From an uncultured Candidatus Saccharibacteria bacterium (lineage in GTDB: Bacteria > Patescibacteriota > Saccharimonadia > Saccharimonadales > Saccharimonadaceae), in NCBI GenBank assembly GCA_943914775.1, contig CALUDH010000006.1, positions 5,291 to 69,290 on the forward strand: 64,000 bases of DNA. The letters run 5' to 3'. Every line of letters starts with the position of its first letter. Positions within the stretch are counted from its first letter, which is position 1. Position numbers and translations under genes: made by a program. A model generated the notes under the pieces. The model did not search any database. It saw nothing but the letters and a program-made list of their open reading frames with translations, and was not told where the DNA came from. Of this stretch, positions 55,326-56,057 are shown piece after piece.

Positions 55326-56057
55326 TTACGACATAGAATATAACCGCACCCATTCCTCGGGAGTCAATTCTGACGGTTTGCGTTCAGGGTTGATGCTGGC
55401 TTTGGCGCGCGGTACGGCAGCAAAGACTTTTTGCGAAGCGTAGCATTTCGCGACGAAACTTTGGTACTTGTCGCGTTCTAATGTAGATAGGAGCGGCTCG
55501 GACTGCGGCTTCAGCTCTAGCAGTACGGTATCGACTGCTGGCGGCGGCGTGAAATTTGTGCGGCGCAGCGGGCGGCGGATTCGCGTCTGCCACCACGGAG
55601 CTAATTGCGCGCCTAATTGAGAAGTAAAGTGCCGGTCGCTTGGTACTAATTTTTGCGCGAATTGCTTTTGGACGATTAGGTAAATTGATCGCGGTGCGTG
55701 CATCTCGTTGTTGCTAGTCAATTTGCGTACTATGTCGGCGCTCAAGTGAAAGGGAATATTAGCAAAAACTTTGTATGGTTCATCTGGTAATTTCACTTGC
55801 AGAAAATCTTGTGCTATTACTTTGACGTTTTTGTGCCGGCGCATATTTTGCTGTAGTTTGTTGAGAATACCTGGTTCGTTTTCGTATGCTAAAACTTGCC
55901 GGCATCGGCGTGCTAACACTGCCGTAATGGCGCCGCTGCCAGCGCCGATATCTATTACCAAATCGCCGCGGCGTATGTTGCTGTGGCCTATCAGCTCGGC
56001 AATCAAGCGTGGATTACGCAAAAAATGCTGCGAATGGGTGGCGACTTGGCGTCTCAT
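55326..56057 (-). CDS. rRNA adenine N6-methyltransferase, Erm-like (a second KsgA/Erm-family member in the window)
   Basis: The 243-aa length and the motifs SQHFL, DIGAGSGAIT, NIPFHLS and SIYLIVQKQFAQKL, together with the C-terminal domain (TPPPAVDTV...), match the Erm family pattern (SQNF / EIGxGxGxxT / NIPYxIST / IYLIVExGF) better than the KsgA pattern. Confidence 0.55.
   Translation of the reverse strand: MRRQVATHSQHFLRNPRLIAELIGHSNIRRGDLVIDIGAGSGAITAVLARRCRQVLAYENEPGILNKLQQNMRRHKNVKVIAQDFLQVKLPDEPYKVFANIPFHLSADIVRKLTSNNEMHAPRSIYLIVQKQFAQKLVPSDRHFTSQLGAQLAPWWQTRIRRPLRRTNFTPPPAVDTVLLELKPQSEPLLSTLERDKYQSFVAKCYASQKVFAAVPRAKASINPERKPSELTPEEWVRLYSMS

Follow-up and report, generated by a model that had tools for sequence, protein, structure and literature searches.

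Does the second rRNA adenine-N6 methyltransferase gene of an oral Candidatus Saccharibacteria (TM7) genome encode an Erm-type enzyme, and was it inherited with the lineage or recently acquired? The gene lies on the minus strand at positions 55326..56057 of a 64,000-nucleotide (nt) stretch of contig CALUDH010000006.1, which we call the window. It starts with ATG, ends with a stop codon at 55326..55328, and encodes 243 amino acids (aa). An earlier reading of the DNA (the original prediction) had described it as a second, Erm-sized member of the RrnaAD family and as a possible determinant of macrolide, lincosamide, and streptogramin B (MLS-B) resistance. Family and size are as claimed: PF00398 (Pfam RrnaAD) covers residues 8 to 207 of the protein (E = 1.9e-45; 155 bits versus a cut-off of 24), and the motifs that had been named are all present in the translated open reading frame (ORF), SQHFL at residue 9, NIPFHLS at residue 100, and IYLIVQ at residue 125, together with DIGAGSG at residue 36. 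The most likely function, which we hold with moderate confidence on sequence-based grounds, would be that of a constitutive, intrinsic Erm-clade methyltransferase acting on A2058 of 23S rRNA.

Placement between Erm and KsgA

The original prediction also stated that the genome has a canonical KsgA, and this is so. The gene at 10778..11602 (+) encodes a bona fide KsgA/RsmA that scored 248.7 bits on the TIGR00755 ksgA model (cut-off, 171) and whose closest solved relative was Bacillus subtilis KsgA (4.5e-44). We used this paralogue as a control. The 243-aa protein scored only 131.3 bits on the same ksgA model, and the alignment stopped at residue 210. On the NCBIfam model NF000499 (Erm23S_rRNA_broad, hereafter Erm_broad) it scored 208.8 bits versus a curated cut-off of 212, and the alignment reached residue 241 (242 of the 244 positions of the model). 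Erm_broad gave the true KsgA of the same genome 195 bits, a margin of only about 14 bits. Thus, the Erm model barely separates the two families and was of little use as a classifier; what is informative is that the protein fails the ksgA model. Erm_broad aligns through the C-terminal tail and the ksgA model does not, although some KsgA structures also align across it.

The family straddles the NCBI threshold for Erm annotation. None of the 36 sampled orthologues reached 212 bits, the window protein being the best of them, and deeper Saccharimonadales relatives and outsiders passed the cut-off at 217 to 229 bits, the nearest outsider, a Thermomicrobiales protein, having 229. NCBI names the close Saccharimonadales relatives "rRNA adenine dimethyltransferase family protein" and names both a deeper relative (P0166) and the Thermomicrobiales protein "Erm."

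Identity to validated Erms was 27 to 34%, versus 29.8% (108 bits) to the genome's own KsgA. By HMMER, the nearest solved relatives were Erm(38), ErmE, ErmC', and ErmAM, ahead of Dim1/KsgA. An AlphaFold2 model of the 243-aa protein had a predicted local distance difference test (pLDDT) value of 94.6, and in a Foldseek search with this model the top structures by E-value were ErmE (8e-23) and Erm38 (1e-21). However, the template modeling (TM) scores were 0.78 to 0.84 for Erm and KsgA structures alike, and we rejected structure comparison as a classifier because the two superpose equally well.

Because profile scores, pairwise identity, and fold did not separate Erm from KsgA, the question was put to a tree. 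We aligned 186 sequences over 240 trimmed columns and applied neighbor joining to simple distances with 200 bootstraps. They comprised 28 orthologues from Saccharibacteria; 133 sequences that each represent a cluster in an exhaustive HMMER search; seven functionally proven Erms (A, B, C, E, 36, 38, and 42), taken from annotated plasmids and PDB alignments; four further references, three of them named only "erm" (from Kocuria, Dietzia, and Escherichia coli plasmids) and one a family protein from a Klebsiella plasmid; and 14 KsgAs from nine phyla, including Saccharibacteria, Pseudomonadota, Bacillota, Aquificota, Actinomycetota, Fusobacteriota, Bacteroidota, and Mycoplasmatota. The plasmid collection contains mislabelled chromosomes and chromids, and these supplied the diverse KsgAs; a profile search from four KsgAs gave almost exclusively Enterobacterales and Saccharibacteria and was not used as the diverse outgroup.

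The 14 KsgAs were monophyletic, with the window family excluded, in 94% of bootstraps, and they were split from the Saccharibacteria family plus the validated Erms in 99.5%; a grouping of KsgA with the Saccharibacteria family to the exclusion of the Erms appeared in 2%. That family was itself a clean clade in 98.5% of bootstraps. Since a clade of validated Erms that leaves it out appeared in only 1%, proven A2058 methyltransferases bracket the family. Its usual sister was a group containing Erm(42) and the Firmicutes Erm(A), Erm(B), and Erm(C) (61 to 70%), the actinobacterial Erms branching farther out. A first, smaller data set agreed. By sequence phylogeny, then, the family is on the Erm side of the Erm/KsgA split, nested among validated Erms, and the grouping with KsgA/Dim1 that would have contradicted the original prediction was not found in this tree. 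That prediction of an Erm-like identity therefore stands in so far as the protein is distinct from KsgA, by both the ksgA model and the trees; it is weakened in that the protein stays below the NCBI Erm threshold.

The residues of the protein were compared over the 36 Saccharibacteria orthologues and mapped to ErmE by a HMMER alignment to 6nvm. A Rossmann-fold catalytic domain occupies residues ∼8 to 185 (55503..56036, -), with a Pfam match and with alternating strands and helices in the model up to the strand at residues 177 to 184. Within it, the S-adenosylmethionine (SAM)-binding motif I, DIGAGSG (residues 36 to 42; 55932..55952, -), has invariant G38, A39, G40, and G42; the acidic residue of motif II, E59, is invariant; and the catalytic motif IV, N-I-P-F (residues 100 to 103; 55749..55760, -), has invariant N100, P102, and F103, the last corresponding to Y134 of ErmE. 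K136 (55650..55652, -), the counterpart of the "basic ridge" residues K164 of ErmE and R134 of ErmC, is also invariant. In the adenine-pocket loop F169-T-P171-P-P173 (55539..55553, -), both P171 and P173 are invariant and F169 nearly so; F169 corresponds to F196 and P171 to P198 of ErmE. The mutations F196A and P198A abolish resistance in ErmE, and a Lys or Arg at position 164 is required (PMC8906542). However, every tested ErmE/ErmC residue conserved in our family is also conserved in KsgA. For example, the window KsgA has Arg at the position of K136, so this residue is needed for Erm function yet does not discriminate; no single residue that separates Erm from KsgA was found among those tested. 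The conserved residues are evidence of a working adenine-N6 methyltransferase but not of its target. The surfaces that set specificity are loop 1, loop 12, and the C-terminal domain (PMC9386465).

The C-terminal helical domain occupies residues ∼186 to 243 (∼58 aa; 55329..55502, -), with helices in the model at residues 192 to 207, 209 to 214, and 233 to 242. It is absent from some relatives. In 20 of the 79 loci collected (L060 to L079), among them 10 of the 36 aligned orthologues, the protein is 183 to 199 aa long and ends just after the last Rossmann strand, so that the catalytic domain is kept and the whole C-terminal domain is missing (e.g., L062:5983-6540, L073:1137-1736, and L061:5983-6615). 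These short forms come from the oral G3 group, one "Nanosynbacter" bin, and many ruminant-gut bins. Five of them (L073, L074, L076, L077, and L079) have an insertion of ∼13 to 14 residues after the catalytic helix. In L061, L067, and L079, the sequence beyond in-frame stop codons retains a resemblance to the missing domain. The similarity in L061 goes on beyond the stop codon (…*LFNRFETFVEEIF in L061 versus KYQSFVAKCYAS), which suggests that this gene was shortened by a nonsense mutation. Because a recent cryo-electron microscopy study reportedly has the Erm C-terminal domain anchoring the enzyme on the 50S precursor (PMC12652253), these natural truncations are of some interest.

Other members of the tree have unusual architectures or contexts. 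P0146 (449 aa; NCBI source), which falls in the Saccharibacteria clade, is a methyltransferase (residues 8 to 208) fused to a complete peptide deformylase (residues 279 to 412, above the TIGR00079 cut-off), i.e., two ribosome-directed activities in one predicted polypeptide. A long C-terminal extension is likewise present in P0144 (364 aa). L080, on the Klebsiella pneumoniae IncC plasmid NZ_OM975890.1 (41849..42721), clusters with Erm(42), is flanked by two IS91-family transposases, and lies beside sul2; it looks like an unnamed mobile erm allele.

Inheritance and expression

We scanned one genome per species for relatives of the gene; L numbers denote loci from relatives and P numbers denote homologous proteins. 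Orthologues with 45 to 99% identity were present in at least 79 Saccharibacteria species genomes. The only relatives outside assemblies of Candidatus Saccharibacteria/Saccharimonadales were in three bins (labelled Acidobacteriota, Parcubacteria, and "bacterium"), which are possibly mis-binned. The samples behind these loci were taken from the human mouth, the gut of ruminants, reactors, and soil or water, and the exact window protein belongs to a 90% cluster with 789 members.

The gene order is also conserved. The phosphoketolase gene xfp, whose product has XFP_N, XFP, and XFP_C domains, begins on the plus strand at 56129, 71 bp from the methyltransferase and divergent from it, as had been noted before; ackA and an RlmD-like gene follow. 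This xfp-ackA-RlmD-like block is divergent from the methyltransferase in all close relatives, and the linkage to xfp is kept in several lineages in which protein identity is just 52 to 60%. The reading frame was unbroken in all 79 loci. Among 16 close relatives, the ratio of nonsynonymous to synonymous substitution rates (dN/dS) was 0.158 for the methyltransferase versus 0.043 for xfp, 0.029 for ackA, and 0.081 for the SulP gene. Thus, the gene is under purifying selection, although looser than that on these three genes. The GC content of the methyltransferase is 50.4% (53% at third codon positions [GC3]), compared with 49.7% for xfp (GC3, 53.5%) and 46.9% for the window minus the AT-rich island described below. 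In a search of 72,556 plasmids (E-value limit, 1e-8), the best match had 34.5% identity, and there was no match with at least 60% identity. We conclude that the methyltransferase is a conserved, vertically inherited, core chromosomal gene of Saccharibacteria and not a recent acquisition; the earlier suggestion of an intrinsic gene with host-like GC content was correct on both counts.

The original prediction had further linked the gene to a tRNA insertion hotspot and its AT-rich island. The adjacency is real: a tRNA-Gln(ttg) gene (55197..55271, -) lies on the same strand as the methyltransferase, 54 bp beyond its stop codon, and alignment with relatives defines an AT-rich insertion of 3.6 kb (51587..55193; 34.6% GC) that abuts the 3' end of the tRNA. 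However, in L003, L005, L006, L017, and L025 the site is empty, position 51586 being joined straight to 55194, and these five genomes retain the methyltransferase with 93 to 96% protein identity. The link to the hotspot is therefore adjacency only. For the same reason, and because the gene lies outside 51587..55193, we rejected the reading of the methyltransferase as island cargo or part of a mobile cassette.

The expression signals point away from drug-dependent control. A probable extended -10 box, TGgTAAAAT (56064..56072, -), read directly from the sequence, stops 6 nt short of the ATG, and no Shine-Dalgarno sequence precedes this start codon. A consensus scan did not list this box, since it lacks a -35 hexamer, so the promoter is a prediction. 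The arrangement of -10 hexamer, 6 nt, and ATG recurs in L037 and L039, in which protein identity is 58%, and L052, within the range of 52 to 58%, has TATAAT, 9 nt, and ATG. With the -10 box so close to the start codon, the mRNA would be leaderless or nearly so. The 71-bp intergenic region (56058..56128), which is shared with xfp, has no leader peptide or attenuator architecture: neither a leader peptide ORF nor hairpins sequestering a ribosome-binding site were found in it. The predicted fold of 56030..56128 (-17.5 kcal/mol; z = -0.57) leaves the start codon unpaired and is not a significant structure. On these features (the 71-bp spacer, the z score, and the position of the -10 box) we rejected translational attenuation. 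The only upstream mini-ORF, MVNIAN* (six codons; 56108..56088, -), lies upstream of the predicted -10 box, and a five- to six-codon ORF occurs there in close relatives and in L037. We rejected it as a leader peptide; it falls between the -35 and -10 elements of the opposite-strand xfp promoter (TTGGCA-17-TATAAT; 56092..56120, +; 11 of 12 matches in the consensus scan), which probably accounts for its conservation. Expression is thus probably constitutive and leaderless, without translational attenuation. A leader or attenuator is typical of many erm genes but does not define the enzyme family.

The promoter of tRNA-Gln, TGgTATAAT (55296..55325, -), also has an extended -10 box, like that of the methyltransferase. 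The shared form, GTGGTAWAAT with a poor or absent -35 element, may be usual among the promoters of this genome.

Probable function and its alternatives

If the product is an A2058 methyltransferase, it would use SAM to place one or two methyl groups on N6 of A2058 (E. coli numbering) during assembly of the 50S subunit, and macrolides, lincosamides, and streptogramin B would be kept from binding by this modification. Expression would be constitutive, driven by the promoter with its -10 box 6 nt before the start and with no drug-sensing leader or attenuator. The Saccharibacteria ribosome would then carry the methylation at all times and not upon induction. That methylation of A2058 cannot be demonstrated from sequence alone was said at the outset and still holds: we infer the target nucleotide, the choice between mono- and dimethylation, the resistance phenotype, and the transcription start.

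The one experimental result that bears on this comes from published transposon insertion sequencing (Tn-seq). In Southlakia epibionticum, SEML1_0379, which we take to be the orthologue from its size, its Pfam domain, and its phosphoketolase neighbourhood, was scored nonessential at all three Tn-seq time points, with 32 to 42 insertion sites (supplement of PMC10633639). Dispensability in co-culture fits a conditional, protective role. In the same supplement, the stretch SEML1_0377-0380 has the methyltransferase followed by an EttA-type ABC-F protein, with a DUF4332 gene between the methyltransferase and the phosphoketolase. All four genes are nonessential by Tn-seq; the ABC-F family includes ribosome-protection resistance factors.

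A number of points weigh against an A2058 methyltransferase. Since the Erm threshold was missed, by the window protein and by every sampled orthologue, and since the true KsgA scored 195 bits on the same model, the label "Erm" comes mainly from phylogeny; the identities, TM scores, and tested residues given above do not set the protein nearer to Erm than to KsgA. The tree is a distance-based neighbor-joining tree whose deep branch order is not firm, and the sister group has moderate support (61 to 70%) and contains unnamed sequences chosen by their similarity to the query. Constitutive dimethylation of A2058 is said to be costly in other bacteria and would be unusual for a whole lineage. No rRNA lies in the window, and none of the loci collected contains the A2058 region of 23S rRNA. 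Published susceptibility data for Saccharibacteria and macrolides (azithromycin, erythromycin, or tylosin) were not found in the literature, and the sole study that expressed Candidate Phyla Radiation (CPR) methyltransferases, in E. coli, deliberately excluded MLS (erm-like) candidates (Razzouk et al. 2026, bioRxiv 10.64898/2026.07.13.738296).

The alternative that we take most seriously, although we consider it rather unlikely, is a housekeeping adenine-N6 methyltransferase for rRNA (or other RNA), of Erm/KsgA stock, whose target is not A2058; such an enzyme would tune the unusual ribosome of Saccharibacteria without conferring MLS resistance. The gene is indeed core to the lineage, looks constitutive, and has no drug-sensing leader; all 36 orthologues fall under the NCBI Erm cut-off, identity to validated Erms is only 27 to 34%, some lineages have lost the whole C-terminal domain, and the specificity surfaces named above (loop 1, loop 12, and the C-terminal domain) are unreadable from sequence. 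But the family is nested within the radiation of proven A2058 enzymes in 99% of bootstraps, and we know of no Erm-clade member with another natural target. Nonessentiality by Tn-seq would also be unexpected for an important assembly factor, although KsgA is nonessential there too. A second KsgA-type enzyme, acting on A1518/A1519 of 16S rRNA as a back-up or variant of RsmA, is improbable. The protein does belong to the same Pfam family, identity to the window KsgA is as high as that to the Erms, and KsgA structures superpose as well as Erm structures do; nevertheless, the protein falls 40 bits short on the ksgA model (131 versus a cut-off of 171, the true KsgA having 249), KsgA stands apart from the family in 99.5% of bootstraps, and redundancy seems unlikely in a genome of <1 Mb that has a complete KsgA.

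We also considered that the gene might be a decaying or inactive remnant. Its dN/dS value is 2 to 5 times those of the neighbouring genes, the Southlakia orthologue is nonessential, and truncated forms occur in some lineages; however, dN/dS is well below 1, the frame is intact in 79 of 79 loci, no SAM-binding or catalytic residue varies, and the structure model is confident, and so a remnant is very improbable. To a recently acquired mobile MLS-B gene, brought by an element at the tRNA-Gln hotspot, we give almost no credence. The gene does adjoin the tRNA and the 3.6-kb AT-rich insertion, but the island ends before the tRNA, and the five empty-site genomes that keep the gene refute such an origin. 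Moreover, its GC and GC3 match those of xfp, its orthologues track the diversity of Saccharibacteria to as low as 45% identity and keep their synteny, and the best of 72,556 plasmids has 34.5% identity.

As an Erm-clade enzyme, the protein has much in common with those already characterized. It shares the Pfam family and apparently the two-domain architecture of Erm(A), Erm(B), Erm(C), Erm(42), ErmE, Erm(36), and Erm(38); its 243 aa compare with 243 to 245 aa for ErmA, ErmB, and ErmC; and, like validated Erms, it has the SAM motif, N-[IL]-P-[YF], the F/P pair of the adenine pocket, and the basic-ridge Lys/Arg. Unlike them, it is encoded by a core chromosomal gene of a whole lineage and not by a plasmid, transposon, or antibiotic-producer gene. 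The erm(B) gene in L085 has an annotated attenuation leader peptide, whereas the window gene has no leader and is apparently leaderless. A parallel in inheritance is offered by the chromosomal Erms of mycobacteria, especially Erm(37) and Erm(41), which are also species intrinsic and chromosomally inherited. The short forms of 183 to 199 aa resemble these two (profiles of 179 and 173 aa, respectively) in having no C-terminal domain, but the window protein is full length and scores just 58 to 62 bits on their models. Mycobacterial erm genes are inducible via WhiB7, in contrast to the constitutive-looking gene of the window. Compared with KsgA/RsmA/Dim1, the protein has the same superfamily and fold, similar TM scores, and the same catalytic and RNA-backbone-contact residues; it differs in failing the ksgA model and in its separation from the 14 KsgAs in the tree.

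Genes of this class have been catalogued already. Surveys of the CPR counted erm-like hits by BLAST/CDD (Maatouk et al. 2021, PMC8651080; Razzouk et al. 2026); they reported human-associated Saccharibacteria to be enriched for erm (258 hits/71 genomes) and erm to outnumber every other resistance-like methyltransferase (13,375 hits in 12,552 genomes). One of them calls erm "erythromycin esterase" (Maatouk et al. 2021). The window gene belongs to this survey "erm" pool. However, the surveys give counts only, with Erm and KsgA unseparated and with no synteny, phylogeny, or expression signals; what is new here is a sub-threshold clade of a well-known family previously met in bulk surveys.

A broader claim is possible but doubtful: a large part of the Saccharibacteria (including the sampled oral, gut, and environmental lineages) may have ribosomes permanently methylated at or near A2058 by a leaderless, constitutively expressed Erm-clade enzyme, in some of them by the catalytic domain alone. 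If this were true, a large branch of the CPR would be intrinsically resistant to MLS-B antibiotics, which could be an adaptation to attachment on Actinomycetota, the phylum that produces macrolides, lincosamides, and streptogramins, and its ribosomes would have evolved tolerance to a modification kept inducible elsewhere for its cost. Should A2058 be the methylated base, the Saccharibacteria of mouth and gut would have a natural insensitivity to macrolides, clindamycin, and streptogramin B, which bears on the fate of these epibionts during common dental and respiratory courses of antibiotics and on the choice of selection markers in new Saccharibacteria genetic systems. The host Schaalia odontolytica can be rendered resistant to erythromycin at 300 µg/mL (bioRxiv 10.1101/2024.11.25.624915). 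A lineage-wide constitutive Erm would then be a natural test of the idea that A2058 methylation costs too much for constitutive expression, and the domain-truncated forms would show, as a natural experiment, what the Erm C-terminal domain contributes to target finding. If the target is another base, the family would represent a new specificity within the Erm clade. Whatever the target, resistome surveys should not count this gene among acquired resistance genes.

The tRNA-Gln site and other neighbouring genes

The island at 51587..55193 has a single gene (51715..54861), which encodes a RecQ/DpdF-like helicase of 1048 aa with an end-to-end match (1.7e-160) to C3a193 ("poss. alt. Cas3"), a candidate defence model of PADLOC. 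No integrase is visible in the island. L002 and L016 carry the same insertion with a helicase that is 100% identical, despite differences of 2 to 7% in the flanking genes among the window, L002, and L016. Because the helicase is identical in these genomes and the insertion is absent elsewhere, the insertion has been recently mobile. A perfect 7-bp GC-rich hairpin, GTCGCCA-TTTC-TGGCGAC (55157..55174), lies inside the right end of the island, ∼20 bp from the 3' end of tRNA-Gln. It is terminator-like on both strands and may end the tRNA transcript or form part of the island end.

Other strains have different cargo at this site. In L009 (6865-9994) it is occupied by genes for a Tsp45I-type restriction enzyme and its DNA methylase, a ThsB-like TIR protein, and an 8xMP membrane protein; L013 is also among the strains with different cargo. 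On the other side of the tRNA, between it and the stop codon of the methyltransferase, L001 (6730-10705) and L022 have an ORF of 1030 aa resembling GDSL lipases. In these two loci, similarity to the window breaks within the last codons of the methyltransferase, whose C terminus is ...LYKL instead of ...LYSMS in L001, L022, L020, L023, and L024. The tRNA-Gln site is thus a hotspot for defence or variable genes.

The RlmD-like gene of the conserved xfp-ackA block (59825..61303, +) encodes a 492-aa protein resembling the RlmD/RumA 23S rRNA uracil-C5 methyltransferases. It scored 141.9 bits on TIGR00479 versus a cut-off of 183.55, and its strain-to-strain identity of 78 to 95% makes it far more variable than xfp and ackA. 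At the other end of the window, two paralogous, secreted-looking proteins (393 and 356 aa) are encoded at 8470..10777 (+), ending directly before the start of ksgA (10777/10778). By eye, this pair upstream of ksgA recalls the rpfB-ksgA linkage of actinobacteria.

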